NCBI GenBank assembly: GCA_950097015.1
Contig: CATNEN010000002.1
Coordinates: 3,534,001-3,598,000 of the forward strand
Source of the DNA: Macrostomum hystrix
Taxonomy: Eukaryota > Animalia > Platyhelminthes
Reading direction: 5' to 3'
Length of the DNA stretch: 64,000 nucleotides
Below are positions 19,622 to 51,602 of the stretch, one piece after another. The first letter of the stretch is position 1; every line of letters starts with the position of its first letter. The translations under genes were made by a program, and so were the position numbers. The notes under the pieces are model-generated. The model did not search any database. It worked only from the letters and a program-made list of their open reading frames with translations, and was not told the origin of the DNA.

Positions 19622-20320
19622 TTAAAAATTACAAGGTGCAGGCAAGTTTTTATAATAGGGGTATCCTATCTGATTGAAAATCCACCTTAGCTCTATCGTC
19701 GTAAGTCGATGTTGGAAAGGCCGGCCATCCGCTCTTCTTAGTTGTTGCATCTCTTCTTCAACGGCCGTAAGGACTGTGCAAGCATGCGGCTGAGGCATTA
19801 GTTCGCGCAGGGCCTTCACCGCTGGCCAGACTTGAGCCCTCTGCGGTAGGGCCTCATCCATCCGCAGGTATGCAATCCTCACCAGATAGCGATGAATGGC
19901 ATATTTGAGGCGCTCCGCATGTTCTCCGTATGCCAGCATCACGTCGTGGCAGGTTTTCTCCGGCGGCGTTGGCGGCGCTGGCGGCGCTGGCGGCGCTGGC
20001 GGTGCTGGCGGCGCTGGCGGCGCTGTCGGCGCTGGCGGCGCGCCTGCTGCTCCTTGGGGCCGCTTCAGTAGAATCTGCTGGGTGCCTTTCACTTCTGGTG
20101 TGGCCTTGACATGCGGGACGATCGGCGCCGCTGCTTGAGCTGTCAAGATGACCGTCCTCTTCTTATGCGGCTCTTCTATTTGCCGAACCTTTACTGGCGA
20201 TGAGGTTCTTGGCCGCTTTCCCGTTACAGGTCGGGGCCTCGTCGGTTGCCTCTCCGGTATTACGTCCAAATCGACTTCTTCCTCAAGCGATCTCAAAATC
20301 TGGTCAAGTTCGTCTTCCAT
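19622..20320 (-). CDS. Gypsy accessory ORF3, unknown function (start MEDELD; upstream ATG at 20371 possible)
   Basis: Intact ORF, clearly homologous over its full length to 48710-49393. Contains GKRPR, a poly-Pro/Ala linker and a helical-looking C-terminal domain; no signal peptide or TM segment seen. Confidence 0.85.
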   Translation of the reverse strand: MEDELDQILRSLEEEVDLDVIPERQPTRPRPVTGKRPRTSSPVKVRQIEEPHKKRTVILTAQAAAPIVPHVKATPEVKGTQQILLKRPQGAAGAPPAPTAPPAPPAPPAPPAPPAPPTPPEKTCHDVMLAYGEHAERLKYAIHRYLVRIAYLRMDEALPQRAQVWPAVKALRELMPQPHACTVLTAVEEEMQQLRRADGRPFQHRLTTIELRWIFNQIGYPYYKNLPAPCNF

Positions 20321-20370
20321 TTCTTTGGCTTTTACAAAATTGGTGTTTTCACGTGCTGACCCTCCCTTCA

Positions 20371-20520
20371 TTATATAGGCTTTGGGGGTTGGCAAAAAGC
20401 GAAATTATCATGGAAACGGTTGTTAAGTTCTATCTCGATTGTTATTGGCTGGCGCGGGAGGTGGGGTTAGGCAGACTCACGGCTGTGTGGCGTGGGCCGG
20501 GAGAAAGTGGCTGAGCATAG
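20371..20520 (-). promoter_or_regulatory. Putative internal Pol II promoter for ORF3
   Basis: TATATAA at 20377-20371, GCCAGCCAAT at ~20453-20444 and a GC-rich upstream block; nearly identical to 49450-49610. Confidence 0.55.
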
Positions 20521-22000
20521 TTGAGCATAGCAGAATTTTCTTTTCTTCATAAAACTTTTAATATTCAACTTTAAGTTTCAAGTTAAATGTTTTTGAAAAG
20601 CTGGCATCAAGACGAATACATTGCTTTTTAAATTTTTCGAATATCTTATATGGTTCTCATTTTGTTGACTGGCTGCACTAAAAAGGGCCGTTTAACTTCT
20701 TCTACTGTCCATTATTCATTCTCTCGTAGTTAATCGCATTATTACGTGGTCTAAGATTATATCTCGCTTCAGGAACTTGATCCTCTTCGTACTGCTCAGT
20801 TTCTTGTTCATCTGGTTCTTCTTCTTCAGCTTCCTCTTGAATTTCTTCCTCAATTTCTCCTTCTATTACACTTTCGATTTCTTCTTCAGATTCTTCGATA
20901 TCCTCGGGTTCTCTTATTCTCCACTGTAATCTTCTCTCATCATCTTCTTCTTCTATCACAATTTCTTCTGTTTTCTTCTCCTTGACTTTTGTCTTCTGCT
21001 TATTAGTCTGCCCTCTCTTAATTTTTGGCTCTGTCTTCTTTTAATTCTCGGATGTCTTCTTCTTTCCAGGCTATCAGGTCCTTATAGAGGGGGAACTTTG
21101 TTGAACTATGTTCATCTGTTCCTACTTTTCAAGCAGACTTAGAGATAGTCGGTCAGAAATTTCAGATACATGGCCTAATCACTGGCACATTTTCCTCACT
21201 TTCTCTCGAGGGCTCAACTTCTTTTCACACTTATCAGTCAGGGCAGTCTGGCAGCTCTTATGCACAAGGCTGAGGCCGCATTAAGACTATTGTTTCTGAT
21301 ATTTTTCTCTTTGAACAACTCACTGACTTCACTTCTTTTTCCTGAAAGATTAACTTTGATCTCCTTTCTTTTTGAAACATTCAGCTGGCATCAAGACGGA
21401 TTAGTTACAGAAGTCTGACATCTCTTTTCGTTGTTTTTACTCTTAATTTTACTTTGCTTGTTATTTATGTGAGTAGGCATAATCGTTTATCTGTCTGTGG
21501 TTACGTGTTTTTTTTAACATAATAATTGCATGTTTATCACTTTATACTTTTTATATTTTTATTGTTTTTATTTCCTTTTATTACATTTTTTACATAGTTT
21601 ATATACACAAAGCATTTCTATACACTATTTACAAATTCAGCTTCATCTTTCACTGTTCCTGTTGGAAGACTTTATTTATTCTCAGAGCGTTTCAGGACGA
21701 CTCTGCACACATGATAACCTGGTCTTTTGTTTTGTTCTTCGCTGATTCTGCTTTTGGGTTCTGTTGATGTTCCAGGTGTGCCACATTGATAGCACCTGTT
21801 GAACATGTGGAAGTTATCCTTCGTTATGGTCTCGTGATTCCTTCTTCCTCTTCCGGCTGATCGATTCTCAGTTGCCTGTTGTTTTCCAAACAATGAAGGA
21901 TGAGCTGGCTGCTGGTTCATCAGAACTGCCATTATCAACATTAAAATCGACATCTTAATCTCTTTTACTGGTTTCACTCTGTTTTAATCGCTGCTTCTCT

Positions 22001-22019
22001 AATCCCACCGCTGCCACCA
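22001..22019 (-). promoter_or_regulatory. Primer-binding site complementary to tRNA-Leu
   Basis: TGGTGGCAGCGGTGGGATT is the reverse complement of the metazoan tRNA-Leu(AAG/TAG) 3' end ...AATCCCACCGCTGCCA-CCA. Confidence 0.85.
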
Positions 22020-22370
22020 AAGTTGTACTAGGGCTAAATTTACAATATTTAATAACAGGCTTTTATAAGAAAATCCCACTTCAGATACCAAAGTTGTAAC
22101 GGGGCTATTTTAACAATTTCACTGCTGTTGACTCAATTTAAAAGATATTTGACTAGCGGTCCTTAAATGGGCCGTTTTAGCTTCTCAAATGGTAGCGTAT
22201 GTATTCGCACGAGCGGTAACTAGGCAACTGTACACGTTTCCAGTCAATTAGGCGTCCCCGAGATTAGAGTTTAGCAGTTTCCTTTTTGCAATATTCTTAG
22301 CATAATTCTGAGTATGGTTCTGAGTATATTTCCGAGTATAGTCCTGAATATAGTTCTGAGTATAGTTCTG

Positions 22371-24747
22371 ACTCCGAGCTCGATCAGAAAGTGCAGCGCG
22401 TACTGCAGGCTCTGCAGTCAGCTGGAATGACCATCAACCTGGACAAGTCGAACCTAAGAGCAACAGAAGTTTCCTTCCTAGGCTACAGAATCAGCGCCTC
22501 AGGAATAACTCCGGACCCGGAGTTGGTGAAAAAAATTCGCTCTGTGAAGCCCCCCAAGGACAAGAAGCAACTGGAGTCTTTCCTGGGACTTGCCAACTTC
22601 TTCGGTCGGTTCATCAAGAGCTACTCAGATGTCATCGAGCCGCTAAATCAGCTGCGAGGCCGAGCAGCAGAGTTCAACTGGGGCCCTGCTCAGCAAGCCG
22701 CTTTCTCACTGATCAAGGACACCCTCAGCCGAAGACCGGTCATCAAGCCTTACAACAGACACGAGGAGACCACGCTCACTACCGACGCCAGCGAGAAGGC
22801 CATTGCAGCGGTCCTGTCTCAGGCCGGACACCCGGTCATGTACTTCAGTCGACGGTTGAGCAGTGCTGAGACTCGCTACTCCAACATCGAGAGGGAGGCG
22901 CTCGCAATCGTGTGGGCCATGGAGCGAGCCAAGCAGTTCCTGCTAGGATCGCGCTTCACGCTGAAAACCGACCACCGCCCGCTGGAGTTTATCTTTGGCA
23001 CGAGGCGCCAGCTGCCGAAGGTTGCAAACGCCAGGCTGCTTCGGTGGGCCATAAAGCTGATGGCATTCGACTACGACATCATCTACACCAAGGGCGAGTC
23101 GATTCCGCAAGTCGACGCGCTAACACGGCTGGACTTCGACGGCGACAGCTCGCAGAATCAGGGCGACCAGCTCGAGAGCGTCATCCACTGGACGGCAGAA
23201 GCCGTAATTCCATGGCAGGAGCTCAAGGAAAAAACCCAGCGGGAGAGGCTGCTGATGGACATCACGAAGCGAGTCGCCACTAACAGATGGTCCAACTGCT
23301 CACCAGCTGAGAAGCCTTTCAAAGCGGCCCGATTCGCCCTGACTGTGGAAGACGGAGTCCTCTGCTACGGCGATCGCGTGGTAATCCCAGCCGTCCTCCG
23401 GCAAAAAGTACTCCGGCTGGTGCACAACGATACGCACCAAGGATCCAGCTCGACTCGCGCCCGTCTTCAGAACTCCGCCTGGTGGCCCGGCTACTGCAAC
23501 GACGTGGAGGCCTTCATCCGCAGCTGCCCAACCTGCTCGAGGCTTCGACCAAGTGGCCCAGCGACTGTTCACCGGTGGCCCGAGGAGCAGGAGCCCTGGC
23601 ACTTAGTGCACATGGATCATGCGAATGTGCCGAAGGTCGGACTGCTGCTCATTCTGGTCGATGCGATGTCTGGCTGGCCAGAGGCTGTGCGAGTGCCGAA
23701 CCGAGACGCGACAACCGTCAAGCGAGTACTCCAGGCTGTCTTCGCGAGAACCGGGGTGCCACACGTGCTCGTCAGCGATAACGCCGCCGAGTTCCACGAC
23801 GCGAATCTCCTCGCCTGGCTAGAGAGGATCGGCTGTCGAGCTCTGAAGACCCCGCCGCGACATCCACAATCAAACGGCCTGGCGGAGCGGATGGTACAAT
23901 CCATCAAGCGGGCATCGGCGGCGTGGAACCAGCAGTCGGAACCGTACGATTCATTCTTGTCCAGGCTGCTCCTGAACTACAGGTGCGTACCGCATGCAGG
24001 CCGGCTGCAGAGCCCGGCGCAGCTCATGGGACGGCAGCTGCGCAACCCGATCACCATGCAGACGCCAATCGGAGCGAGCGTCTGGTACACGCCCGGCGGC
24101 AAGCAGGTCCAAGAGCGAGCCGAGTTCGTTGCCCAGAAGGGCACCAACACAGCACTGATCGCACGGCAAGGAGGCCAGGTCACACTAGCTCACGCTGACC
24201 AGCTGCGTCCCATCATCGAGAGGCAGCCGACTGAGCCAGCACGGCACCAGCCTGAAGAGTCCGCCCCGCATCAGCCCATCGAGCAGCAGCAAACGGAGCA
24301 GCCTGTCGAGCACCAGCCGGACGGTCTCCACCAAGACCATCAGGGCGCGGTCGGCGAGCCGGCCGAGGAACCAGAGCCCCGCTACCCGGTGCGTGCGAAC
24401 AGAGGTGTGCCGCCAGCTCGATTCGAAGGGGGAAGATGAGGCGGCGTTTAAGTTGTAGTGAACTTGAGTTGTGTGACTTATTTTGCACCGCAACTTGTTT
24501 ACCATATTTTGTTCTCACTTATTTTAATCCACTGCAAGTACGAGCGTACATACTCATTTTCTCTAATACATTCTGTCTACCTGTGCGCGCCTAGCCCACC
24601 ACCCCAAATATTGCCACCTTCCACCACTTTACCCTGATCGCTATATAATATCTCGCTATTCATTGTCGCACACTGAAATATAGAATTTTGCTCGCCTTAT
24701 TCTCAAACTAGCAGAATGAACTTTTATTAGTCATTTGCGACACAACA
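22371..24747 (+). mobile_element. 5'-truncated Gypsy (pol half plus 3' LTR) nested in the 5' LTR of the non-autonomous element
   Basis: PPT GAAGGGGGAAGA, LTR 24437-24747 (TG...CA); the host LTR resumes at 24748. Confidence 0.85.
22391..24439 (+). CDS. Gypsy pol fragment (RT end, RNase H, integrase)
   Basis: TDAS, YSNIEREALA, TDHRPL, H..H/C..C zinc motif, DNA..F and SNGLAER; the TGA stop forms the first bases of the LTR. Confidence 0.92.
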   Translation: MQRVLQALQSAGMTINLDKSNLRATEVSFLGYRISASGITPDPELVKKIRSVKPPKDKKQLESFLGLANFFGRFIKSYSDVIEPLNQLRGRAAEFNWGPAQQAAFSLIKDTLSRRPVIKPYNRHEETTLTTDASEKAIAAVLSQAGHPVMYFSRRLSSAETRYSNIEREALAIVWAMERAKQFLLGSRFTLKTDHRPLEFIFGTRRQLPKVANARLLRWAIKLMAFDYDIIYTKGESIPQVDALTRLDFDGDSSQNQGDQLESVIHWTAEAVIPWQELKEKTQRERLLMDITKRVATNRWSNCSPAEKPFKAARFALTVEDGVLCYGDRVVIPAVLRQKVLRLVHNDTHQGSSSTRARLQNSAWWPGYCNDVEAFIRSCPTCSRLRPSGPATVHRWPEEQEPWHLVHMDHANVPKVGLLLILVDAMSGWPEAVRVPNRDATTVKRVLQAVFARTGVPHVLVSDNAAEFHDANLLAWLERIGCRALKTPPRHPQSNGLAERMVQSIKRASAAWNQQSEPYDSFLSRLLLNYRCVPHAGRLQSPAQLMGRQLRNPITMQTPIGASVWYTPGGKQVQERAEFVAQKGTNTALIARQGGQVTLAHADQLRPIIERQPTEPARHQPEESAPHQPIEQQQTEQPVEHQPDGLHQDHQGAVGEPAEEPEPRYPVRANRGVPPARFEGGR

Positions 24748-26888
24748 GTATTATTTACAAGATACAAAATAAAACAAAATATTTACACGCGGCATTATTT
24801 TTCTTACGGTACAAAATAAAACAAAATAGTTCTTTTTGGCGCGTTTTTTAATTTTCTCTTTTTATATATTTTTTACATATATTTTTATAGAAAACGTATT
24901 TACAGTAATGAAACTAAAAATACACTGTTATAATAGCAAGGAGGCGCGCAATTATTTCTTTAATCCAACCTAAAAAAAACATAAAACTAAGTCTGAACCA
25001 TAAATTCATATTACGAGTATATAAATGGTGCCACGTGAAAGAACTAAAAAATATAGCTAGGGCTCTCTCGTTGCGGACTCTCATCGCGAAGAATCAGTCG
25101 TTGCGAAGCCCAAACTTAGGCACGGATATTGGTCCTAACTTCTATATGCTTGCAGTGACAAGTACCCGATGATGAACCTGGCGTTGCATTGTTGGTGGAC
25201 TGACTGCGCCCTGGTGTCGAAGCGCCGGCCGACTGGGTTTCACTGACTGCGCCCTGGTGTCGATGCGCCGGCCGACTATGTTGCATACTGACTGCGCCCT
25301 GGTGTCGAAGCGCCGGCTGCTTTGTCCACAGGCTGAGAAGAAGCTGGTGCGTGATGCTCGACAGTATTCTCAGCAGATAGGGCATTCGTTTTTTACAGCG
25401 TAAGTGCCGTTGATGGTGCCACCAGGAAAGACGTAGAGCTTGCACCAGAACAAGTACCAACACTAGAGAGTAGAAATCGAGGGTCACGCTTCCGATTTTC
25501 TTTTGGCTTCTTGGTAACAGACGAATCTTGACCTTGAGTGTTTAGAAAGAATTCAGGCGCTGTACGCCTTCGCTTAGCTTCGATGTCAGTTTCCGAAAGG
25601 GTGCCCGTCTTGTCGTAGCGTGTCAAACGGTAAATAAGGTACTCCAGATCATCTGCATGTGATTGATTAGATAATAAATCAACATACGCGCTCGTACTAA
25701 CCACCAAAAAACATCCTGCAGGCTTAGGAAATATTCAACAACAACAATACTTGTAGTACATAAAATTGAGCATCAAATAGTCATAGGAAATAATTATAAT
25801 TAGAAGTCAGAAAAAGCTAACACTGAAAAAAATCACTGAAAATATTGACATATGTTGTACCTGTGGTAGCGTGGCACACACAATTGGTAAAAATAACCAA
25901 GACAGGAACTAGATTTCGGGAGAGAGAGTTTATACCGGCCTCAACACTGAATGCCTCGTAGCAGTGGAGCAACCCGGTAGTCAGGCTAGATTACCTAATT
26001 TCCTCGGTCGCTATTTAGGCTCTAGCAGTAATTCCTGCTACTTTGGTTCCCTGCTCTGAAGCCTGGCGATGTGCTATGCTTCTAAATGCAACACACGGCC
26101 TTGCTTCACAATAATGTTAGCAGACAAGATACAAAGATTGCAAAAGAACACAATCGATGTGAAACGCATGAAGACTGAAGGACAGAAACGTGCCATATTC
26201 GTACAGAAGTTGTGCTACCGCGGTACTAACACCATCTCAAGGATTCGTCGGACTGTGCTCTACTTATAGTAGGAGCATTTGAGCGTTGTTATGCCAGTCT
26301 TCTTCCGAACTTAAGCGATTGCACCATGGTGTGCAATGTGACTCAGTGCGCAGACAGAGCTGGAACGAGAGAACGAGAGAGGAGGGGGGGTGGCGAGCGG
26401 AAGTGACAGTGCACGGGAAACACTAACTACCAACCCTAGCCCTCCCACAGACCTAGAACAGCCTGACTCACAGATTGCCTGGAGGCTGCTCAGCAGTCTA
26501 CAGCACATCATTCTCCTCCAGCTAAAGGATGACGGTCAACACCGGCTGGCCGTCAGCCGCACTTAAACCAAAAACAGGTAAGCACCTTTTTATTTACTTT
26601 CCGTAATGGCGCACCAAACTTGAAAGATAAACTACATGAACGATTTTCAATGGCGCACCAAATTAAACAAACTTCAACGGCAACAAGATGAACTAATAAC
26701 AGATAGACAGAGTACAAAAAAAAGATGGAACACACACTAAGAACATCAACCGGGTACATTACCGTCTGGATAACCAAACTATATTTTCACTCACTGGATA
26801 AGAATAAACAACAGGTGCATCGAACTAACAACGAATGTAAGTGCCTCTCACTTTGCACCGTCCTCGGCCACACTGGCCTCAAATCTCC

Positions 26889-27833
26889 CTACAGGAGCCT
26901 GCCAACGCCTCCTAGTTCTTCAGCTGCTGCCATGCGTACCATCGCCTCCGGGTACCAGGACTCGTCTACTAGCTCCACGATGGCCTGTCCGTAACGGGCC
27001 ATCAACTGGTGCGGGGTCCGGGCTGGTCCGTTCAACAACTGCTCCGCTCGTGCCGCTCCCTCGTGAGCCATTTCTCTCCGTGTTGTTCTCTCCTCGGCGG
27101 TGAAGGCCCGCTGCACCGCAGCCGGCCACCCTTCATCACTCTGGCCCCTGGCAGCACGCGCTAGTGACTGAGCCACAAATTGAATGGCGGCTTCCCGGTC
27201 GGCTGCTCGGCCCTGCCACTGTGCTCGCCTCTGTCGGCGCCGCTGGGCACCGCCCCTTCGGCGTCTGGGTCTGGCCACGGCAGCGTCCAACTTATCCGGA
27301 CTATCTCCTGAAGAGGAACTCTGTGGCAGAGGAGGCTCGTGCATAGGAGGCGCAGCTGGCCCCTCCGGCTCTCCCTCGTGCTCGCTAGAGTCCTCGTCCA
27401 ACATACCTTCATCCTCCGAGGGCATGTCAAACTGTAATTGGGCCCAGATATCTTCGTGCCGATCTACTTGGGCATCCATGGACCCACTGCTACTACTGCT
27501 GACTGCCGGCCTACGAGCCTGCACGGCCGCCTCAGCAGTGTCCGGTACGGCCTGCACGGCTATGTGCAGTCGCTTTTTATTGCTTGGCCCATAGGGTGCT
27601 GCAACAGGGCGCTTTACTGCCTGCTGTAAACGGGGAAGCGAGGGCATGAAGTGTTTATGCCAATTCGGCGAGCGCTGACCCAATGGAAAAGGCGCACTAT
27701 TGCCAAATTGACGTTTTAAGAGCTCCACCCGTTTTATTACCTCTGTAGGCTCATTAACTCTCCGCACCACTCCCAGTAGCCGTGGGCGCGTGGGCACCCG
27801 CCCCTCGGGATCGGCGTTCTCTTTGTTGCTCAT
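26889..27833 (-). CDS. Gypsy accessory ORF3 (314 aa), unknown function
   Basis: Intact ATG ORF starting 75 nt after the pol stop, on the same strand, before the PPT. Acidic/Pro tract and RRRR basic tract; no TM segment. Confidence 0.8.
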   Translation of the reverse strand: MSNKENADPEGRVPTRPRLLGVVRRVNEPTEVIKRVELLKRQFGNSAPFPLGQRSPNWHKHFMPSLPRLQQAVKRPVAAPYGPSNKKRLHIAVQAVPDTAEAAVQARRPAVSSSSSGSMDAQVDRHEDIWAQLQFDMPSEDEGMLDEDSSEHEGEPEGPAAPPMHEPPLPQSSSSGDSPDKLDAAVARPRRRRGGAQRRRQRRAQWQGRAADREAAIQFVAQSLARAARGQSDEGWPAAVQRAFTAEERTTRREMAHEGAARAEQLLNGPARTPHQLMARYGQAIVELVDESWYPEAMVRMAAAEELGGVGRLL

Positions 27834-27908
27834 CTTCTCTTTTCTTTAGATTCTGTTCCTTTTTATTTCTTCAAAGAGACTTCTGCGCCCTGATTCGGAG
27901 GATAGGAA

Positions 27909-30900
27909 TTACTGGAACATTTTAGGTAGGCCGTACATTGCTCTGATAAAGTAGGATTTCCTACTAGGATCAACCTGCAACCTTTCCGGCTCTCGCCTAA
28001 CTCTCTGCGGCCTTTGCTGCGGCTCCTGATCCCTAGCGTCTCCTATCTGAGCAGCCTCACCTAAATTTTCGGCCCTAACACTTTCTGCAACCTCCCCGTG
28101 CACAGAGGATGGGATAGGGGACAGGGTTGGAGAGGGCAACGGACTGTCCGACGGCAGGACAACCACATCACCATACGCCTCCCCCGCCTCTTCTCCGTTG
28201 CAGATCTCTGGACCGGCCGGTTCGTGGAGATTCGACCTGGAGACAGCTCGTGATCGCAGGTGCCACCTACGAGCGCTCCACAGGCCGATCTCTCCTTCGT
28301 CGTCGTCGTCGTCGTCGCTGCTGTCGGCTGGCTCGCCGGTCGCGTCAGCCGTCGGAGGGCTACCCTTGGGTGGCCTTCCGAGCTTCCGCCGTCCCGGGCT
28401 CGCCTCCTCCGTCCTGTCGCACATCGAGGCCGGTACCGGGAGCAGGTTGCGCCGATGGACTATCAGCACCTGCTTCCTGGCCTTCTTGGTGCTGCCGTGT
28501 CGCCGGATCTTGTAAACTGTCTCGCCCTTACACTCGAGCACTACGTAGACCGATTGTCTAGGCCGATGGAATTTGCTGATCTCGCCGGATTCGATCACCG
28601 GGTTGTTGAGCAGGACCAGCTGGCCTGGGCGGAGTGGTCTCGCCTGCGGTCTTTCTTGATAGTGTTCTTCTCGCAGCACCTGGTAACTCTCGAGCTTGTC
28701 CCGGGCACAATTGACCGCCTGGTCTATGCGCTCCTGGAAATGTCGGAGATAATCTGGCAGGTCTGCGTACTCGGCCAGTGCTGTCAACGTGTTGTCGACG
28801 GGCAGCCGGTACTCCCGTCCGAAGACCAGGAAGTACGGCGTGTACCCGGTCACAGGGTGGACACTGGTGCGCAACGCGATTAAGCACGCGGGCAGCATCA
28901 GGTCCCAATCCCTGTGATCCCTTTCCAACAAGCACGTGAGCACCGACTTAATCTGGCGATTCAGATTTTCGACCTGGCCATTGCTGGCCGGGTTATAGGG
29001 ACACGTGTGCGTATGACGGATGCCATACAGCTTACAAAAGTCCTCAAACTCTGCACTCATAAAGTTCGTCCCCTGGTCCGTGTGCAACCAGGCTGGTGCA
29101 CCGTATTCGGGAATGAACCTATCCAGCAGTAGTTTGATCACGGTTTTAGTCTTCTGGTTTCGCATCGGATAGGCAAACGGGTACTTCGATGTTGCATCAC
29201 ACAGGGTGAGGATGTACCGATGTCCTCGGGCGCTTGGTTGTGACAAAGGCCCGATTACGTCGGCGTGCACCCTTCCCAAAACCTCACACACTGGATAGCT
29301 CTGCGGTGGGACTACCTCCTTCCGCCTTGACTTGCTCTCCAGGCATGTCCTGCAACGTGCCACGTACCCCGTCGCCTCCGACCAGATACCGGGTCTCCAG
29401 AACCTGTCTCTAACTCTCTGCACTGTCTTGGACTGGCCGAGATGACCCGCCAGGGGTGAGTCATGCAAGGCCTCAAAGACACGCGAGTCTAACGCTTTCG
29501 GTAGCACTGGTCGCGGCGGCCGGTTGTCATCAAAGTCTATGACGAGCAACCCGTCGCGCACCTCCAGCTCCTCAAACGCACCCAGGTCTCTGACCTCCTT
29601 CGCCATCTGGAGTCGCTGATCGAACCTGGGCTTGTCCCTTCCTGACCGCTTCAGTTCCGTCAGGTATCGGATTGCCGGGTCTTGGTGCTGAGCTTCTAGC
29701 AACTCGACCTGGCTAACCGGTACCTTCAGGAACTCTGTCACCACTGCTCTTACCGGAGGCAGCTCTCCACTGTCCTTGTCCTCCCTGTCCTTGGACCCAG
29801 GAGCCCTGGCAGCAGGGGGTGTCCTTGACAGGCGAGACTGGTCGCAACGAGTCTGACAGCTCCCCTCCACCTCTGCTCCCTGTCCCACGGAGGGACCAGC
29901 AGTCGGCAGGCAGGACTGGCTGCAACGAGCTAACTGCTGATCCTCCTGACCCGAGGACCTTGACACAGCGCGATCAGTCGCTCGCAGGCAGGACTGGCTG
30001 CAACGAGCCAGCGACTTCTCCCCTGTTTCTGAGAACTCCTCGACAGTAGGATTCGGCGTCTGCAGGCAGGACTGGCTGCAACGAGCGGACACCTCCTCCT
30101 CTGTCTCCGGACACACCAGAGGCTCTGGATCCGGCGCCTGCAGGCAGGACTGGCTGCAACGAGCGGGCACCTTCTCCTTCACCTCTGAGCCTTCCGCCAC
30201 CACCTGAGTTTGCACCTGTGCCTTGGCATCCCAGCCCCGCACCCAGTGCTCCTCCCTTGTGGCTCCCTGGCTCCAGCTACTTTCCGTAGCTACCGTCTGC
30301 ACGGCGGCATCCACAGTCTGCAGGCAGAACTGGCTGCTACGAGCTGACTGCGGAGCCCCGTAGACAGGTGCTTCTCGCCTCAAAAGCTGGCCTGCGGTTG
30401 TGTCTTCCTGACACCCTTGCAGCACCGCCTTGTCTTGGCGCACCTCGACAGGCTCCAGGACCGGCTCTTCCACCAGTCCTTCAGACACAGCTGCTCCACT
30501 TCCTGATCGGCCGTCCATGACCTCCTGAGCCTTGGGTTTCACAGCTCGCAGTGGTTCTGCGGCTCCTGTGATTTCACCCTGTTCATTGCCCCTTTCCTGT
30601 CCCTCCTCCAGCTGACTCGAAAATTGGCGGGTGCAAGCACTCGCACCGAACTGGTTGTGGGGCGTTAATACCCCAAAGGAACAATTGACCGGATTATCCG
30701 GCTTCCTCGACATCGAGTCAGCATTTTGGTGAGACTTTCCAGGACGATGAACGATGGTGAAATCAAACTCACTCATTCTCTCAACCCAACGGCCCAAGAT
30801 GCCTGTCGCCTCAGTCTGATGCATGAGCCACAGCAGGGCCTTGTGGTCAGACCGGACGACAAACTTCTTGCCAACCAGGAAGTACCGGAAATGCCGCATC

Positions 30901-33026
30901 GCATCTACGACTGCCAGCAATTCTTTGCGAGTCGTAGTGTAGCGGGTCTCCGGCCCTCGCAGCTTCCGGCTGTAGTAGCCAACAGGCCTTTCTACTCCAT
31001 CAGACTGCAGCTGATTCAGACAAGCCCCTATGCGGTCATCAGAGGCATCTGTGTCCAGGATGAAAGTTACTTTCGGGTCAGAGGTGTACTCCGGGTACGC
31101 CAGTACCTCCGTAGAGCACAACGCATCCTTCAATCCCTGAAAGGCCCTCTCATGCTCTGTCTTCCACAGACCCTTCAAGCTGGTAACGTCCCGCTTAGTG
31201 AGCTCGTGCAATGGTGCTGCAATCCCTGAGTAATTGCGGACGAACTTCTTGTAGTACTGCGCCAACCCCAAGAAGCTGCGCAATTCCTTGGCGCTTCGAG
31301 GTGTCGGCCAGCCTCTGAGCTCGGCGATCTTATCCTCGTTCGTCAGGATGCCTTCTGGTGTCACCACGTGGCCTAAATAGTGCAACTCCCTCTTGAATAG
31401 GTGGCACTTCTTCGGCTTCAGCTTGAACTGGGCTTCACGGATTCGAGTCAGCATCATCCTCAGATGCTCCAAATGATCGTCAAAGGTAGGCGAGTGGACG
31501 AGTATATCATCGATATACCCCAACGCTACCTTTGGCGTCAGCCCCTCCAGCAGCTTGTTGATACAGCGCTGAAAAGACCCTGCCGAATCCGTCATGCCCA
31601 TCGGCAACACAGTAAACTCAAACTGACCTCTGTGGTGAACCGAGAACGCGGTCAGGTGTCTATCCTGCTCTCTCAGCGGGATCTGCCAGAAACCCTGTGC
31701 AAGATCGAGGGCGGAATAGTACTGCGCCCCTCTCAAATGCTCAAAGGTCTGCTGTATGTCTGGCAGCGGATAGACGTGCTTCAGGCAGCGGCTATTCAAC
31801 TCGCGATAGTCTAGGACAATCCTGATAGTCTTGTCTTTCTTCGGGACAATCAGAAGAGGCGTGTTATAGCTGGAGAATGTCGGCTTGATGATGCCTTTCG
31901 CCAACATCTCATCCAGCATCTTGTCCAACTGTTCCATCAAGTGAGGCGGGATCCTCCTCGGTGGAATGCGAACTGGAGTGGGATCTGTCACAATGATCTC
32001 ATGAGTGACTAAGTCAGTGACACCATGGTCCAGGGGATGCATTGCGAATGCCTCGCGGCACTCTCTCAACATCTCCTTAACCCGATGCCTCTGCTCCTCG
32101 GTCAACCTCTCACAAATCTCCACCTCCTCTAGCCATGCTTCATCGCTCTCCAGCCCTTCTGCCTGAACCTGCCTGACCGGCGTCTCCTCTAGCTCTGGTA
32201 GATATTCCAGTTCGTCTGCCTTCAATGGCCTCGCTAGCCCTACAAGTCCATTGCGCCGAATGACCGCCGGGAAGCAAGAGGTGTTGACGACTTCAACACA
32301 CCCTGTCCCGTCAGCCATCGTCAGCAATGTCGGGGCCATCTCGACCTGAGACGCCCCTGGCTTCAGTCCTGACCTCAAGGACTCAACAAGCAGCGGCGTG
32401 CCGTGACAGTCAGTCCGGCCACCCGCTAGCTTCACCGCTACGAGCATCGAAGAGCGCGCTGGCACAGTGGTCTGCTCGAGTGAGTAAACCCGACTGGCCC
32501 TCGCCTCTCGCCTCGTGAACCTCAGCGGCACTCTGGTTCCTGACTTCATGGTCAGCATCCCCTTCGGAAAGTCAATCTTCTGGGTGTGCTGGCGCATGAA
32601 ATCAATTCCTAGGATGTTCTCGTGCTCGCCCTTCGTCACGCAGAACTCGACGTCTACAGCGTAGTCGCCGAGCCTGACCTCAAAGGCGACTCGCCCTAAA
32701 ACCGGCAATCGAGAACCATCAAAGTTGCACAGGGCACTCTCTCCTGTCAGCACAGCGTGCGGCACTACATGCCGCAGAGATGCCCACGTCTCACTTCCAA
32801 TCAGACAGCGCCTGCTCCCTGAGTCTAGGAGAAAAGGCACCGTCTTCTTGGAAACCATCGCCGTCACATAGGGGTCAGCGTTGGAGGCATACCAACGCTC
32901 GAGGAAGCTGGTGCTAGGAGAGCCCCTACCCTCTCCTCCAGCTGACTCCTCAGTCTCCCTCAGGCCCGTCCAGGAACTGGACTGCGAGGGGCACTGCCGT
33001 CCGTGCTCCTCGCCGTCCCGTTTCCC
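27909..33026 (-). CDS. Gypsy pol (PR-RT-RH-IN), translated by -1 frameshift
   Basis: LLDSGS, YIDDILV, DTDAS, H..H/C..C, DQG..F and SNGQVE; the frame stays open up to the GGGAAAC heptamer at 33026-33020. Confidence 0.95.
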   Translation of the reverse strand, partial: GKRDGEEHGRQCPSQSSSWTGLRETEESAGGEGRGSPSTSFLERWYASNADPYVTAMVSKKTVPFLLDSGSRRCLIGSETWASLRHVVPHAVLTGESALCNFDGSRLPVLGRVAFEVRLGDYAVDVEFCVTKGEHENILGIDFMRQHTQKIDFPKGMLTMKSGTRVPLRFTRREARASRVYSLEQTTVPARSSMLVAVKLAGGRTDCHGTPLLVESLRSGLKPGASQVEMAPTLLTMADGTGCVEVVNTSCFPAVIRRNGLVGLARPLKADELEYLPELEETPVRQVQAEGLESDEAWLEEVEICERLTEEQRHRVKEMLRECREAFAMHPLDHGVTDLVTHEIIVTDPTPVRIPPRRIPPHLMEQLDKMLDEMLAKGIIKPTFSSYNTPLLIVPKKDKTIRIVLDYRELNSRCLKHVYPLPDIQQTFEHLRGAQYYSALDLAQGFWQIPLREQDRHLTAFSVHHRGQFEFTVLPMGMTDSAGSFQRCINKLLEGLTPKVALGYIDDILVHSPTFDDHLEHLRMMLTRIREAQFKLKPKKCHLFKRELHYLGHVVTPEGILTNEDKIAELRGWPTPRSAKELRSFLGLAQYYKKFVRNYSGIAAPLHELTKRDVTSLKGLWKTEHERAFQGLKDALCSTEVLAYPEYTSDPKVTFILDTDASDDRIGACLNQLQSDGVERPVGYYSRKLRGPETRYTTTRKELLAVVDAMRHFRYFLVGKKFVVRSDHKALLWLMHQTEATGILGRWVERMSEFDFTIVHRPGKSHQNADSMSRKPDNPVNCSFGVLTPHNQFGASACTRQFSSQLEEGQERGNEQGEITGAAEPLRAVKPKAQEVMDGRSGSGAAVSEGLVEEPVLEPVEVRQDKAVLQGCQEDTTAGQLLRREAPVYGAPQSARSSQFCLQTVDAAVQTVATESSWSQGATREEHWVRGWDAKAQVQTQVVAEGSEVKEKVPARCSQSCLQAPDPEPLVCPETEEEVSARCSQSCLQTPNPTVEEFSETGEKSLARCSQSCLRATDRAVSRSSGQEDQQLARCSQSCLPTAGPSVGQGAEVEGSCQTRCDQSRLSRTPPAARAPGSKDREDKDSGELPPVRAVVTEFLKVPVSQVELLEAQHQDPAIRYLTELKRSGRDKPRFDQRLQMAKEVRDLGAFEELEVRDGLLVIDFDDNRPPRPVLPKALDSRVFEALHDSPLAGHLGQSKTVQRVRDRFWRPGIWSEATGYVARCRTCLESKSRRKEVVPPQSYPVCEVLGRVHADVIGPLSQPSARGHRYILTLCDATSKYPFAYPMRNQKTKTVIKLLLDRFIPEYGAPAWLHTDQGTNFMSAEFEDFCKLYGIRHTHTCPYNPASNGQVENLNRQIKSVLTCLLERDHRDWDLMLPACLIALRTSVHPVTGYTPYFLVFGREYRLPVDNTLTALAEYADLPDYLRHFQERIDQAVNCARDKLESYQVLREEHYQERPQARPLRPGQLVLLNNPVIESGEISKFHRPRQSVYVVLECKGETVYKIRRHGSTKKARKQVLIVHRRNLLPVPASMCDRTEEASPGRRKLGRPPKGSPPTADATGEPADSSDDDDDDEGEIGLWSARRWHLRSRAVSRSNLHEPAGPEICNGEEAGEAYGDVVVLPSDSPLPSPTLSPIPSSVHGEVAESVRAENLGEAAQIGDARDQEPQQRPQRVRREPERLQVDPSRKSYFIRAMYGLPKMFQ

Positions 33027-34249
33027 GACGTCTGAGTGCCTTGGGCCTGCAGCTCGGACTGCTGCCTGGGCTCTTGCCGTTGCTCTCTCGGGTACCCCTG
33101 AGCGTGGTGCTCATAACGCGGCTTGGGTGGCCTCGTCGGGCAATCACGCCTCAGGTGTCCGAACTTCCCGCAACCAAAGCATGCCCCTCTTGGCGGCGCC
33201 GGTCCTTCCTGCTGCACGGCTCCTTGTGGTCGGCTGAGCGCCTGGACCAGCATCTCTTGCACCTTCTGCTGATGCTGCAGCTGCTGACCCTGGACCTCGA
33301 CCATCTTGGTCATCAGCGATTCGAGTCCCTTCAGCGCAGCGGTAACACCTTGCGGTGGCGGCCGCGCATTCAGTTCCTCATCCTCGCCGTGCACCATCCG
33401 AGCCGGCCCATCCTTCGCCCTCTGGACTGCCTCGTCGACCACCTCTAGGCGCTTTAACTCTCGCCTAGCTTCCAGGAGTGTTCTAGGGCGAGTCCGCAGC
33501 AGGTGCTTGCGGTTCTCAACCGAAGTCCGAACTCCCTTAATAAACTGGTCGACCAACTCATAGTCCAGGTCTCTCTGGCGAAGGTTGGTGTAGGCCTGCT
33601 CACCGAGTCCTTGCAACGCATCAGCATAGTCATCAAGCGTTTCCGCTTTCTTCTGATAGCGATTGCGGAACTCGTCTCGGTACTCCTCAGGGCTACTCAG
33701 CGGCGCGAATCGCTCCACAATACGCTCCTTGAACTGGGCATACGTGAGCTCTTCGGGCAGCTTCATCCTGAGGACGGCATTCAGGCACTGTACATCGAGG
33801 TGGTCGAGTAGAAGGGCCTTGCGTGTCTCCGAACTGTGAATCGCAGCCCGGGCGCAATACGCTTCAAACGCGTCCACCCACAGATGCACGTCCTGACCCC
33901 GAGAAAACTTGGCAATTTTCGCCGTCCTACCTTGTTGTTGTTCCACCTGCTTCTCCATCAGGTTGAGCATCCGGTACACCAGGTCAGCCGTCGCCCTGTC
34001 GTCCAGCCTCGGTCGTCGTCGCCTTGCTGCCGCTGCCACTGCGCCCCGGTCGTCGTCCTCGCCGCCGGACTGATCGTCGTCGCCGAAGTCGCTCTCGCCG
34101 TCCTCGCCGTCGCCGACACAGCCGTTGCCGCGGCCGTTCCACCGACTCCTGCCAGCAGCTTCCTGCAGCGCACAGCCAACGCGAGACTCCAAGCTCCGGG
34201 CTACCTGCTGCCTCTCCTCCCTCTCAGAATCCAATTCCTCTTGGGACAT
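32960..34249 (-). CDS. Gypsy gag
   Basis: Capsid-like Q...E....Y...L motif and CCHC knuckle CFGCGKFGHLRRDC. Confidence 0.93.
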   Translation of the reverse strand: MSQEELDSEREERQQVARSLESRVGCALQEAAGRSRWNGRGNGCVGDGEDGESDFGDDDQSGGEDDDRGAVAAAARRRRPRLDDRATADLVYRMLNLMEKQVEQQQGRTAKIAKFSRGQDVHLWVDAFEAYCARAAIHSSETRKALLLDHLDVQCLNAVLRMKLPEELTYAQFKERIVERFAPLSSPEEYRDEFRNRYQKKAETLDDYADALQGLGEQAYTNLRQRDLDYELVDQFIKGVRTSVENRKHLLRTRPRTLLEARRELKRLEVVDEAVQRAKDGPARMVHGEDEELNARPPPQGVTAALKGLESLMTKMVEVQGQQLQHQQKVQEMLVQALSRPQGAVQQEGPAPPRGACFGCGKFGHLRRDCPTRPPKPRYEHHAQGYPREQRQEPRQQSELQAQGTQTSGNGTARSTDGSAPRSPVPGRA

Positions 34250-35299
34250 GGCGTTCGTTTCCGCAGTGAATGAGTAAAAGACTAACTCGAATCACACCGC
34301 TTTGCCACCAATGTTGTACCTGTGGTAGCGTGGCACACACAATTGGTAAAAATAACCAAGACAGGAACTAGATTTCGAGAGAGAGAGTTTATACCGGCCT
34401 CAAGACTGAATGCCTCGTAGCAGTGGAGCAACCCGGTAGTCAGGCTAGATTACCTAATTTCCTCGGTCGCTATTTAGGCTCTAGCAGTAATTCCTGCTAC
34501 TTTGGTTCCCTGCTCTGAAGCCTGGCGATGTGCTATGCTTCTAAATGCAACACACAGCCTTGCTTCACAATAATGTTAGCAGACAAGATACAAAGATTGC
34601 AAAAGAACACAATCGATGTGAAACGCATGAAGACTGAAGGACAGAAACGTGCCATATTCGTACAGAAGTTGTGCTACCGCGGTACTAACACCATCTCAAG
34701 GATTCGTCGGACTGTGCTCTACTTATAGTAGGAGCATTTGAGCGTTGTTATGCCAGTCTTCTTCCGAACTTAAGCGATTGCACCATGGTGTGCAATGTGA
34801 CTCAGTGCGCAGACAGAGCTGGAACGAGAGAACGAGAGAGGAGGGGGGGTGGCGAGCGGAAGTGACAGTGCACGGGAAACACTAACTACCAACCCTAGCC
34901 CTCCCACAGACCTAGAACAGCCTGACTCACAGATTGCCTGGAGGCTGCTCAGCAGTCTACAGCACATCACATACAAAAATAATTATTTAAATTTGGCATT
35001 ACGCACCATTGGACATAAGAATATCCGAAACTGCATGGCTTCTCCAGTCAATAATTCCTGGCGCATCTTGCCGACGTAGACGCTTGATAAATTTTTTGGA
35101 TCTGTTGTACTTCGGTAGTCATTTGGCAGTAACACAGCACTATTATCAGATGTGAGCCAATTTTTAGAAACAACCATAAATCCATCAGGAAAGCTTACCA
35201 GGCAGTTCTTTCTCATAATTTAATTTTGCTTTTGAGCTGCAAGAAAGGGATGATGCATAAATTGAAATTCAATAACATTTATACAATGTGACGATTCTT

Positions 35300-37560: not shown

Positions 37561-37896
37561 TAGGCAATATTAATTCAATTCTTGTTATTACATTCCATTT
37601 TGGAAAGCAATTCCAAAATGATAGTATTTGCCAGGAGTAAGATTAATTATCTCAATTGTGCCTTAAGACCCAAGAAATGTACGAGGATCAATTGGAAGTT
37701 CTGGATAGCTTGGTTTTAGTAGTTTAAGAAGATCTTTGATTGCCATGTGAAAATTTATGATCAATACAGACCTGCTTAAATTTCTCACTGAAACCTTCAT
37801 TATCAGACTCTTGGTCTATAAAACTACCAAATCTTTCATCACCACTGCTATTAACATTATTATTACTAATAACAGCTCCAACTTCTTCTTCCAAAG

Positions 37897-42452: not shown

Positions 42453-43118
42453 CAAAGCATCTTCACTAGAACTATTATTAGAATCATATTTTGCACTTAA
42501 GAAATGCTAGAATTTGAAGTTATATTTTGGTCTTGGAGTTGACAATTATTAGCAGTTGAATTTTCATTATAAATACTATCAGTAGAATCAGTTTCACTAG
42601 AAGATGAAACTAAGTGTGCACTTAATTATATTAAATGACTTGCAGCTTTTTTGTCTATTAGATGCCATGTAATTTTGAATTGTTTATTAGGAGTTAAATT
42701 AACTTATACTCGTAGCTAGGCTTGTAACATTGCAGTGTACCGTATTGTCTAAATTAGGTAATCTTCGAGAATATTCTAAGTCAAATCCTTCTATAATTTT
42801 CTCAGAATTTCTAGAAGTTCTCAAAAGTAAATGTTATATTTCTATTAATCAGCTTGCAGTTAATTATAAGACTTAGATAATACTTTATCGTCACATATTT
42901 CGTACTATAGTTATTTCCGAATATTAACTTTGTTATAATGCAATAAAACATTCTAGAATATTCCGTTGGACACTATAAATATAAGTAGCCAAGGAGTGCA
43001 ATCTCCAACCTTCCTCAAGCTCTCGGTCATACGATCGACAACCAACCGAAAAGAACCACCGCCTTTGTTCTCTGATTCATTACGAAAACTTTACAACTGG
43101 TCCGGCGAGGCGACAAAC

Positions 43119-44132
43119 ATGATAAATCCCAGCGAGGAAACGACTTCACCGTCGGACAGCAATCCAACTCCTACACCGGTAGTCAGTCAGCCAAGCGCTA
43201 CCACAAGCGCCGCGCCTCCGCCCATGAGCCAGCCCAGCAGCATCACCATTGCTCCTACATCGTTAGGTCAGCCTTACGTCGTCGCAGACTCTATGCCACT
43301 GCCAGTTTTCCAACCCACGTTAGCAGCTGTAAGCGTTAAGGCACCACCATTCTACCGCAATAACCCCGATGCGTGGTTTCAGACTCTCGAGTCACAATTC
43401 AAGCTGGCACGCATCACGTCGGAGGATACTCAGTACCATCATCTCGTTGCAAACCTGCCTGAGGACATCGCCTCTGTGCTCCTGACGGCCGAGACCGTAG
43501 CCAACTACGCTGCTCTGAAGACAAGCGTCTGCAATATGATGCAAAAGAGCAAGCAGGAGAAAATCAACGACCTGCTGGCTACTTCGGACCTCGGCGGAGA
43601 TAAGCCGTCCATCTTTCTGCAACGACTCACGGCCAAGATGTCGCAATGCGGAATCCAGCCGTCCGCCTGCCCCGACATGGTCAAGGCAACGCTGCTGCGC
43701 TGCCTACCCAACGAATTTCGCATCGCTCTATCCGGCTTTCAGCACCAGTCGCCAGCAGAACTCGCTTCAATCGCCGACTCGATGTTCGCAGTCCAGAACA
43801 CATTCGGCAAAGTCAACGCTGCTCTGCCTAGCATGGTCGCGGCCCTCCCCGCGACATCGCACGGCGACTCCAGCCAGGCTCGGAAGCCGAATCGGGGCGG
43901 CATGAAGCCCTTTAAACCGGGCCAACGTCCGGTCATATGCCGCGCGCACGTTTTCTACGGTCTCCAAGCTCGCTCCTGTCGCCGATGGTGCCAATTTCCG
44001 AAGACGCCCGGGCACTCCCCGCATGTTCTCTCGAACAACGAGACGACGCCTGCTCAATCGCGTTCTTCGTCGCCAGTGCGACACAGTCAGGCCCCGGGAA
44101 ACAGGATGGCGCTGCCCACCACGCCGCAGTGA
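43119..44132 (+). CDS. Gypsy gag
   Basis: K.PPF..NNPDAWF..LESQF, KPS.FL.RL and the C..H..YG..A..C...C motif typical of this Gypsy group. Confidence 0.9.
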
Positions 44133-47100: not shown

Positions 47101-47326
47101 AGGTCAGCAGGAGGCAGTGTCAATCGACCGCCTGAAGCCGCTCCGTACCGCCGCTGCCACACCTCGTCCAAAGCCACCCGACCAAGCTCAACCGTCCAAG
47201 GATCGGGCGCAGAGCGACATCGCATTGCCACCACGGACGACTCCGGTGGCGGCGAGAGCACCAAGGACTACCAGGAGTGGCCGGCACGTGCGCTTCAAAA
47301 ACAACAATGATTACCTATATTTTTAA
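44096..47326 (+). CDS. Gypsy pol (-1 frame), intact
   Basis: VDTGA, YIDDLL, TDAS, H..H/C..C, DRG.QF and TNGKIER; slippery G GGA AAC at 44096-44102 in the gag frame. Confidence 0.95.
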
Positions 47327-48709
47327 TGTCGAATATTTAATTTTTTTCATAACTCTACCCTATCATACGGTACGTTAAGCCCCGCCAACGCATTATTTTA
47401 GGAGACTCCGTCTCCCGCAGGGGGGACTATTGTAACATTGCAGTGTACCGTATTGTCTAAATTAGGTAATCTTCGAGAATATTCTAAGTCAAATCCTTCT
47501 ATAATTTTCTCAGAATTTCTAGAAGTTCTCAAAAGTAAATGTTATATTTCTATTAATCAGCTTGCAGTTAATTATAAGACTTAGATAATACTTTATCGTC
47601 ACATATTTCGTACTATAGTTATTTCCGAATATTAACTTTGTTATAATGCAATAAAACATTCTAGAATATTCCGTTGGACACTATAAATATAAGTAGCCAA
47701 GGAGTGCAATCTCCAACCTTCCTCAAGCTCTCGGTCATACGATCGACAACCAACCGAAAAGAACCACCGCCTTTGTTCTCTGATTCATTACGAAAACGTT
47801 ACAGGCTCAGCTTTTCAGAATCAAAATAGTAAATTTTTTATGTTTCAGTGGTAATGAATATGTACTAGGGCTTTTACTTCTTTTTACCTAATTCTACTGA
47901 ATGCCACCAAAGTTGTTCTTGGGCTATTTTAATAATTCCACTGCTGTTGACTCAACTAATAGATAATTTTAAATGGCGGTCCTTAAATGGGCCGTTTTAA
48001 CTTCTCAAATGGTAGCGTTTATATATGCACGAGCGGTAACTAGGCAACTGTACACGTTTCCAGTCAATTAGGCGTCCCCGAGATTAGAGTTTAGCAGTTT
48101 CTCTTCTGTAATATTCTTAGTATAATTCCTGAGTATAATTCTGATTATATCTCTCACTGCTATTTCTTCTTTAAAATGAATAACACAATGCAATACCTTC
48201 GGAAATTTGCTTTTTAACACACTTAAAAACTCTTTTTACAAACACACTAAAACTGCTTTAATTTTAACTCTTTACACACTTCAAATTATCTCACTTTAAA
48301 CTCACTCTTTAAACTCTTGAAAACACCTTAGAACACTTGCCTTTAACTTCAACTTCTTACAAGAAAACTTCGGAGACACTTTAGACTCTTTAACACTTTT
48401 GTTTGCCCTTTTTATTTTTCCTGGTCAAAACTCGCGGCTATTTATACAGAGCAAATTGACATTTTGTTGAAACGATAATATTTTACAAAGTATTATTTAC
48501 AGGATACAGTATTAAAACAAAATCATTTACATAAGCATTACTTTCAATACGGTACAAAGATAAACAAAAATCTTTTTTTTTGGCGCATTTTTTATTTTAT
48601 TTATTTTTACAATTTTTATAATAGCAAGAACGTATTTATAAAGTGGCTAACTGTTACAACTTCCCTCTCTAAAGAGAAATTTGAATAAAACAAATAAGTG
48701 AAAATTTTT

Positions 48710-49393
48710 CTAAAAATTATAGTTGTGCGGTAAGTCCTTGAAATATGGGAAATTCACTTGATTAAACAACCAACGGAATTCGATAGTTACTAGCCGATGC
48801 TGAAAGGTCCTGTTGTCGGTCTGCCGCAGGCGCTGAAGCTCCCCTCCAATTGCGGCGTAGATGGTTACCACTTCCGGCTGTGACATCAGTTCCTTAAGCG
48901 CTCGGACCGCCGCCCACACTTGCGCTCGCTGTGGCAAGGCCTCGTCTAACTTTAGGTAGGCGACCCTTGTGAGGTAGCGGAGTATGGCAAAACGGAGCCG
49001 TTCCGCGTGTTCTCCGTATTTTACCATCAGTTCCTGATAAGTCAGCTCCGGTGATGACGGTGGCGGAGGCGGCGGCGGTGGTGGCGGTGTTCCAGCAGAG
49101 GGTTGACCACGCTTCTTGTCAGCCACCGGTGTGATGAAGATCTGGCACGTACTTTTGGTGCCCGGCGTGTTTTTGGCGTGCTTCTCAATTGGCATCGCTG
49201 CCTGGGCCGCCATCAAGTTTGCTCTTCTATTGTGTAGGTCCAATTGCCGTACCTTAGTGGGTGAAGAGGTCCTCGGCCGTTTCCCTGCCACTAGCTGAGG
49301 CCTCGTTGGCTGTCGCTCCGGTGCTGATATTTCGGCGTCAAGGTCTACTTCTGGTTCCAGCGACCGCAGTAGTTCGTCGAGTTCATTATCCAT
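48710..49393 (-). CDS. Gypsy accessory ORF3 (start MDNELD; upstream ATG at 49450 possible)
   Basis: Intact; homologous to 19622-20320. Confidence 0.85.
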   Translation of the reverse strand: MDNELDELLRSLEPEVDLDAEISAPERQPTRPQLVAGKRPRTSSPTKVRQLDLHNRRANLMAAQAAMPIEKHAKNTPGTKSTCQIFITPVADKKRGQPSAGTPPPPPPPPPPSSPELTYQELMVKYGEHAERLRFAILRYLTRVAYLKLDEALPQRAQVWAAVRALKELMSQPEVVTIYAAIGGELQRLRQTDNRTFQHRLVTIEFRWLFNQVNFPYFKDLPHNYNF

Positions 49394-49449
49394 CTCTGCG
49401 CAAATTAGCTTTTCACAATTACTGCTCTTGGGTGCTGACCCTCCCTTCA

Positions 49450-49610
49450 TTATATAGGCTTTGGGGGTTGGCCAAAAGCGAAATTATCATGGAAACGGTT
49501 GTTCAGTTCTATCTCGATTGCTATTGGCTGGCGTGGAGGTGGGTTTTAGGCAGACTCACGGCTGTGTGGCGTGGGCCGGGAGAAAAGTGGCTGAGCATAG
49601 TTGAGCATAG
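49450..49610 (-). promoter_or_regulatory. Putative internal promoter for ORF3
   Basis: TATATAA at 49456-49450 and CCAAT at 49527-49523. Confidence 0.55.
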
Positions 49611-51549: not shown

Positions 51550-51602
51550 CATTCCATTTCAGGCTTTCACCCTCGTAGAGGGTATGCCTCACCCCATGTC
51601 GC

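Follow-up and report, generated by a model that had tools for sequence, protein, structure and literature searches.

The window analysed here is a 64,000-nt stretch of the genome of Macrostomum hystrix (Platyhelminthes; assembly GCA_950097015.1, contig CATNEN010000002.1, positions 3,534,001-3,598,000), and all coordinates are positions within it. The analysis centres on three of its Ty3/Gypsy long terminal repeat (LTR) retrotransposons, all on the minus strand: A and C, which carry related third open reading frames (ORF3) between pol and the 3' LTR, and B, a sister lineage included in the comparison. Elements B and C have LTRs, a target duplication, a primer binding site (PBS) and polypurine tract (PPT), gag, and the order protease, reverse transcriptase (RT), RNase H and integrase; A is derived. 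The features of A and C are as follows.

18764..24932, minus strand: element A, non-autonomous, target duplication ATAG, LTR halves 3.3% apart
18764..19558, minus strand: A 3' LTR, with a divergent U3 that contains an E2F-like TTTGGCGC at 19461, followed downstream by a C-like part
20320 (ATG) to 19622 (stop), minus strand: ORF3-A, 232 amino acids; from N- to C-terminus an acidic amphipathic helix, RxPTRP, KRPR, a Pro/Ala linker and a helical C-terminal domain
20702-21037, minus strand: A pol tail
21038-21198 and 21208-21335, minus strand: A gag-pol remnants, about 78% identical to C, frameshifted
22024..24932, minus strand: A 5' LTR (pieces 24747-24932 and 22024-22371), split by a piece of pol from an unrelated Gypsy, on the plus strand
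47861..60386, minus strand: element C, target duplication AATA
47861-48658 and 59590-60386, minus strand: C LTRs, 5 differences in 798 bp
49393 (ATG) to 48710 (stop), minus strand: ORF3-C, 227 amino acids
51603-55457, minus strand: open frame of a long interspersed nuclear element (LINE) in C pol, 1284 amino acids, with endonuclease, RT and C-terminal C2H2 fingers
58548-59549, minus strand: C gag
from 58674, minus strand: C pol, interrupted by the LINE and carrying a break of frame within the integrase region

Element A has lost gag-pol and is a non-autonomous mosaic, with about 92% DNA identity to C just upstream of ORF3; A and C are not two full lineages. Both A LTRs start with TA, not TG, on the element strand, despite the clean 4-bp target duplication, and the target sites of A, B and C (ATAG, CATA and AATA) all contain ATA. 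Near their ends (18810-18840, 47895-47920 and the matching 5' LTR positions) the LTRs of A and C have a degenerate second LTR-end/PBS-like copy, which suggests an old U5-PBS duplication. For the LINE in C pol no target duplication of at least 8 bp was found.

Both ORF3s lie where the original prediction had put them, at 19622-20320 and 48710-49393 in the position of env, and the plus-strand frames over both intervals are full of stops. They share 132/241 identities by BLASTP (55%, E 2e-85), or 61% when only aligned columns are counted, in line with the earlier estimate of about half of the residues. Every indel between them keeps the frame, as had also been claimed, and the linker DNA of ORF3-A is a 9-bp repeat present in 8.9 copies. 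Over the 218 aligned codons the identities at codon positions 1, 2 and 3 are 0.67, 0.80 and 0.35, with a nonsynonymous difference (pN) of 0.25, a synonymous difference (pS) of 0.81 and a nonsynonymous divergence (dN) of 0.305. Four-fold degenerate sites match at 20 of 65, against a random expectation of 0.29, which puts the synonymous divergence (dS) at 1.05 or more and dN/dS at about 0.3 or less; the remaining five frames have 6-16 stops each. The coding sequence of ORF3 is preserved by purifying selection, as the original prediction had proposed, while its synonymous sites are saturated.

Signal peptides and transmembrane segments were assessed only by the best 19-residue hydropathy, which was 0.97 in ORF3-A and 0.69 in ORF3-C. 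Across five family members the maximum was 0.22-0.97 and the N-terminus was acidic, so that by hydropathy neither a signal peptide nor a transmembrane anchor was found. Furin sites (R-x-K/R-R) numbered 0 in A, C and the proteins P0003, P0010 and P0011, in agreement with what had been read from A and C. All six proteins compared with Pfam (A, C, P0003, P0004, P0010 and P0011) fell below every family's cut-off, again as the lack of a recognised family had implied, and none of the six matched a GDSL or DEDDy catalytic-domain profile, the model being all-helical. ORF3 is a soluble non-envelope accessory gene. Non-env ORF3s are already a known kind in LTR retrotransposons, as described for bdelloids (PMC5408684) and for the additional ORFs (aORFs) of plants (PMC7264820), where the gene that follows pol and precedes the 3' LTR is likewise specific to a family and gained and lost in modular fashion. 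Unlike those, the A/C ORF3 has no GDSL, DEDDy or transmembrane domain and no Pfam family, and while bdelloid ORF3s are described as spliced (PMC5408684), it has a promoter-like array instead.

The N-terminal half of ORF3-C is predicted to be disordered except for two helices, and the C-terminal domain (residues about 115-227, 113 residues) is predicted as a five-helix bundle (mean local confidence, pLDDT, 87; predicted template-modelling score, pTM, 0.81) with a net charge of +3/+4, consistent with the helical domain that had been proposed. The motifs named earlier are present in both A and C. Full-length members of the family share the acidic amphipathic helix, RxPTRP, a KRP motif and the C-terminal domain; in the alignment the acidic helix and RxPTRP are retained in 4/4 and KRPR in 3/4. 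The PhixxPhiPhi core of the helix varies as LDELL, LDQIL, IDDFL and IDMFI, and Y-L-x-R, LPQR and L are invariant in the C-terminal domain. This layout of acidic helix, basic motif and helical domain, together with the conservation of the motifs in homologues from Macrostomum lignano, would fit a nuclear accessory role.

Foldseek found nothing in PDB or BFVD with an E-value of 0.001 or below, and none of the fold searches pointed to a helix-turn-helix or another DNA-binding fold. The best VIA scores were Z 8.4 for the whole model (Munc13-4; root-mean-square deviation, rmsd, 3.0 over 103 aligned residues) and Z 8.0 for the domain alone (a B12-binding cap bundle; rmsd 2.3, 81 aligned), which is the range expected for helical bundle models. 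Weak hits to the LEDGF integrase-binding domain / TFIIS N-terminal fold (E at least 1.3, TM score 0.26-0.33, rmsd about 7) and to cullin-repeat folds were not accepted, nor were a single low-complexity row from the PDB sequence search (E 0.26) and the fungal DUF6532/DUF6698 clusters of the ESM Atlas, which scored 0.93-0.95 but with fewer than 170 shared features. For P0003 the ESM Atlas gave no usable feature match.

A phmmer search of 1.84 billion protein representatives produced 7 matches, of which two (P0006 and P0009) were discarded as Pro-rich low-complexity noise. The five that share the helical domain comprise one cluster from an unnamed contig and four transcript-derived proteins of M. 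lignano, in which the family includes Mlig016073, Mlig008543 and Mlig026206; among these representatives no homologue with a named host was found outside Macrostomum. Two of the M. lignano proteins (P0007 and P0011, 118 amino acids, 27-29% identity) consist of the helical domain alone, as would be expected if it were a captured host gene carried along with little element-specific function. We regard this as improbable, considering the strong purifying selection inside the elements and the lack of homologues with named hosts beyond the genus. The M. lignano annotation behind the homologue identifiers was built from RNA-seq (PMC5730564), and all four M. lignano identifiers searched are listed as 'Non-Specific' in the Mlig_37v3 transcriptome table (supplement of PMC7336406), a class that may be a default; for Mlig008906 the row in the table is g1 and the homologous protein g2. 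This is indirect evidence that the M. lignano relatives of ORF3 are transcribed.

Further searches added no members. A word-indexed protein search with ORF3-C confirmed 0 of 737 candidates, the ORF3 profile found only 2 proteins among 7,996 scored, both already in the profile, and when related loci were scanned with the ORF3 alignment, none of 173 stretches from metagenomes and none of 118 from viruses was confirmed. An integrase scan recovered 80 distant loci (25-40% identity), none of which matched the ORF3 profile (best E 0.42 among 6,455 ORFs). We found no description of this ORF3 family or of a promoter-bounded cassette swap in the literature covered, with Repbase and an earlier M. lignano LTR classification paper outside the search. 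In the M. lignano LTR survey PMC12801592 the word 'ORF' is absent from the main text; the supplement of PMC8662610 gave no match. An errantivirus survey reports only gB-type env in flatworms, located before pol (bioRxiv 2023.10.26.564294).

Change-point analysis of the A/C alignment delimited a divergent region in both elements.

19260..20352, minus strand: divergent cassette in A, containing ORF3, 3' untranslated region (UTR), PPT, U3 and the start of R; about 60-64% identical to C
48371..49431, minus strand: divergent cassette in C, counterpart of A 19260..20352

The blocks flanking the cassette are 93% and 87% identical between A and C. The pol tail and spacer upstream of ORF3 have 92.7% identity over 685 aligned sites, which falls to 59.7% past A 20353 / C 49432 (support interval 20357-20352, log-likelihood difference 112), and at the 3' break, inside the LTR at A 19260 / C 48371, identity goes from 0.64 to 0.87. 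Four-fold matches jump from 15/17 in the pol tail to 20/65 in ORF3 across a 6-bp boundary, for which reason we rejected uniformly fast evolution of ORF3 without recombination. An assembly chimera is unlikely, as the shared flanks differ by 7-8% and have indels of their own. Judged from this alignment, ORF3, the 3' UTR, the PPT and the U3 share a far older common ancestor than the flanks. Since a difference in substitution rate cannot give this pattern, these parts would have moved as one block, and the ORF3-U3 cassette was likely swapped between element families. Both A LTRs carry the same mosaic make-up, so the exchange preceded the insertion of A.

The conserved side of the 5' boundary contains a promoter-like array in both elements.

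20353..20500, minus strand: predicted Pol II promoter of A; GC/CACC-like boxes at 20495, 20465 and 20458, CCAAT at 20448, TATATAA at 20377
49432..49580, minus strand: predicted promoter of C; GC-like boxes at 49574, 49543 and 49536, CCAAT at 49527, TATATAA at 49456
20371 and 49450, minus strand: upstream ATGs of A (+17 amino acids) and C (+19 amino acids)

In both A and C the CCAAT is 71 nt upstream of TATATAA and is preceded by the three GC/CACC-like boxes, and the CCAAT-plus-TATA layout appeared in 0.6% of 20,000 shuffles in a post hoc test. The mosaic boundary lies 20-25 nt below the start of TATATAA. ORF3 is likely transcribed from this predicted internal promoter. Two routes of exchange could be envisaged. 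In the first, a co-packaged subgenomic ORF3 mRNA would be copied up to its own 5' end; in the second, homologous switching between genomic RNAs would take place inside the conserved core promoter. Under either route the promoter would be real. In murine leukaemia virus, subgenomic RNA is known to be co-packaged (PMC2925334).

We tentatively favour, as possible but short of probable, that ORF3 is an internally promoted nuclear transactivator or adaptor for the LTR of its own element, working like the Tas protein of foamy viruses. The GC-box, CCAAT and TATA elements would drive a subgenomic RNA ending in the 3' LTR, so that ORF3 could be made before or apart from the genomic RNA. The basic KRPR motif would import the protein into the nucleus, the acidic PhixxPhiPhi helix would recruit a host co-activator, and the helical domain would dock on U3 DNA or on a host factor bound to it. 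When RNAs of two families were packaged together and reverse-transcribed, copying may have changed template by strand transfer in R and changed back at the internal promoter, moving ORF3, PPT and U3 as a single cassette; the helper-dependent A would in this way combine a C-like backbone with an ORF3 and a U3 that match each other. In favour of this reading are the layout, with its flexible linker and mildly basic folded domain, the travel of ORF3 with U3, and its retention in A, which borrows Gag and Pol. The wider proposal that an env-less animal Gypsy clade independently evolved a foamy-like two-promoter switch, with the ORF3-U3 pair traded through co-packaged ORF3 mRNA copied end to end, seems to us unlikely as a whole.

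Foamy Tas/Bel1 (PMC3798896) is an accessory gene at the 3' end as well, comparable in length (Tas 209-308 amino acids) and with an acidic activation-type segment; its internal TATA promoter and lineage-specific pairing with U3 have possible counterparts here, the first predicted and the second suggested by the cassette. Unlike in foamy viruses, ORF3 sits in an env-less Ty3/Gypsy element and its acidic segment is N-terminal. No sequence or fold link between Tas/Bel1 and ORF3 appeared in the Pfam, PDB, BFVD and VIA searches. Because no homology was found, spacer and U3 share no word of at least 11 nt and linkage alone also explains the co-travel, we do not class ORF3 as a Tas. The maize Grande gene23 (PMC7264820) is a nuclear accessory protein of a Gypsy element with its own promoter, both of which are predicted for ORF3; gene23 is antisense and plant-specific, whereas the A/C ORF3 is sense and animal. 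In the Oikopleura elements Tor3b/4b the Penv promoter of the third ORF lies in the pol tail or post-pol spacer (PMC4402516), as predicted here, but the Tor product is a transmembrane Env and that of ORF3 is soluble. Exchange of a 3' gene between backbones by copy-choice recombination is known from the env swapping of endogenous retroviruses by template switching (PMC10536682), from which the present case differs in that the gene is not env and the boundary is at a predicted promoter.

Several observations weigh against a self-regulating ORF3 with its own promoter. The exchange is read from only two copies, and ORF3 and U3 are adjacent, so that linkage alone would also make them travel together. 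The intact frame of ORF3-A is weak evidence of function, with about 1.7% change per copy since insertion and chance survival of an ORF of this size, by simple arithmetic, frequent. Transcription usually starts about 30 nt from the TATA, and the mosaic break falls a few bases short of this distance. The upstream ATG, inside TATATAATG at the edge of the TATA, is open and in frame to the main ATG in both elements (the shared frame alone would be expected about 1 time in 9), which would fit a longer protein from a spliced or further-upstream transcript. There are pyrimidine-preceded CAG sites upstream of ORF3, and trans-splicing is widespread in Macrostomum (PMC5730564). The promoter region and U3 have no common word of at least 11 nt (none of at least 9 nt in A, the longest 10 nt in C); even in foamy viruses the response elements show little conservation (PMC3798896). 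Finally, no TATA/CCAAT array was found upstream of ORF3-B.

The main rival is an anti-silencing factor that would bind or divert a piRNA or heterochromatin component in the nucleus or germ granules, its alleles being swapped in an arms race. VANC-type transposon anti-silencing proteins are reportedly a class defined by sequence-specific loss of silencing marks in trans. The layout of short motifs plus a helical bundle would suit such a factor, as would the deeply divergent ORF3 alleles on near-identical backbones and the different ORF3 of B, and Macpiwi1 silences transposons in Macrostomum (PMC4604429). The amino-acid signal is purifying, not diversifying, and a non-autonomous element would presumably have no need to keep a general suppressor acting in trans; we consider this explanation rather doubtful, and nothing in the analysis puts anti-silencing above transactivation. 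The basic motifs and the Pro-rich linker would also be compatible with a post-transcriptional cofactor of the particle or pre-integration complex, acting in RNA export, nuclear import or integrase tethering, roles known for retroviral accessory genes (PMC7264820). We think this quite unlikely, since recombination has parted ORF3 from gag-pol and carried it along with U3, and A, which has no gag-pol partner of its own, still has it. As to the original interpretation, its selection, non-env nature and lack of a named family stand, while it overlooked the cassette, the promoter-like array, the non-autonomy of A and the different ORF3 of B.

Another function to be considered is manipulation of the host cell cycle, by which ORF3, together with an E2F-like site in U3, would favour transposition in neoblasts or germ cells. 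The site TTTGGCGC occurs in each of the four LTR copies of A and C (19461, 24835, 48579 and 60307) despite about 68% U3 identity, and these are 4 of the 7 matches to the E2F consensus in the window; in addition, ORF3-B starts with what we take to be a KEN-like motif. This is a remote prospect in our judgement: no LxCxE-type motif was seen by eye, and an 8-mer would survive at 68% identity about 5% of the time by simple arithmetic. The conserved E2F consensus TTTGGCGC may, as an observation in its own right, tie the expression of A and C to cycling cells.

Element B is the third member of the comparison.

25853..34969, minus strand: element B, a sister lineage whose gag and pol frames are open; target duplication CATA, LTR divergence 0.5%
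26889..27833, minus strand: ORF3-B, 314 amino acids, not matched by the A/C family profile; only the N-terminal RxPTRP in common

After its KEN-like start, ORF3-B has RxPTRP, an acidic middle and an Arg-rich RPRRRRGG stretch. RxPTRP occurs among the frames of the window only in the three ORF3s, and its position near the start of ORF3-B was reproduced in 0.08% of 200,000 shuffles (post hoc). There was no Pfam match, and the look-up in large protein libraries, by exact match only, was negative. A 14-bp motif is found twice in the 3' UTR of ORF3-B (26662 and 26618, minus strand), with a TGCGCCA core loosely like the E2F-like site of the A/C LTRs. The long insert of B between RNase H and integrase contains a 78-bp repeat encoding RCSQSCL units (29894-30200, minus strand), and a related linker rich in Gln and Cys occurs in C.

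A quick tree of 57 RT rows places C, B, the metagenome protein P0013 and the RTs of M. lignano in one clade (SH-aLRT 99), the closest match being from M. lignano (56%). By elimination among the clades of PMC12801592, B and C may belong to the Gmr1/Osvaldo clade of M. lignano. P0013/P0144 is an RT of this clade deposited under the label of a bacterial metagenome-assembled genome (Kangiellaceae), probably animal contamination.

Two other elements of the window, outside the B/C RT clade, are presumably Mag-like and CsRN1-like. The first is an intact single-ORF Gypsy with identical 281-bp LTRs (38118-42113, plus strand). The LTR of the second (42722-43095; second LTR 47430-47803) has a heat-shock-element pattern twice, at 42764 and 42951, and this pattern is reported in CsRN1 families of M. 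lignano (PMC12801592). The remaining features are:

63-482: tandem array, 23-bp unit, about 18 copies
1242-2704: tandem array, 24-bp unit, 61 copies
10947-11795, minus strand: mariner-type transposase
13192-14637, minus strand: piggyBac-type transposase (DDE_Tnp_1_7)

Additional ORFs in the LTR retrotransposons of animals are commonly assumed to be env, and a function is seldom assigned to those with a soluble product. The sharp boundary of the cassette shows how accessory genes and LTR promoters may shuffle between families. The ORF3 family is present in M. lignano, in which transgenic LTR reporters already work (PMC12801592), and so the possibility that retrotransposons of simple appearance encode their own transcription regulators would be directly testable there.

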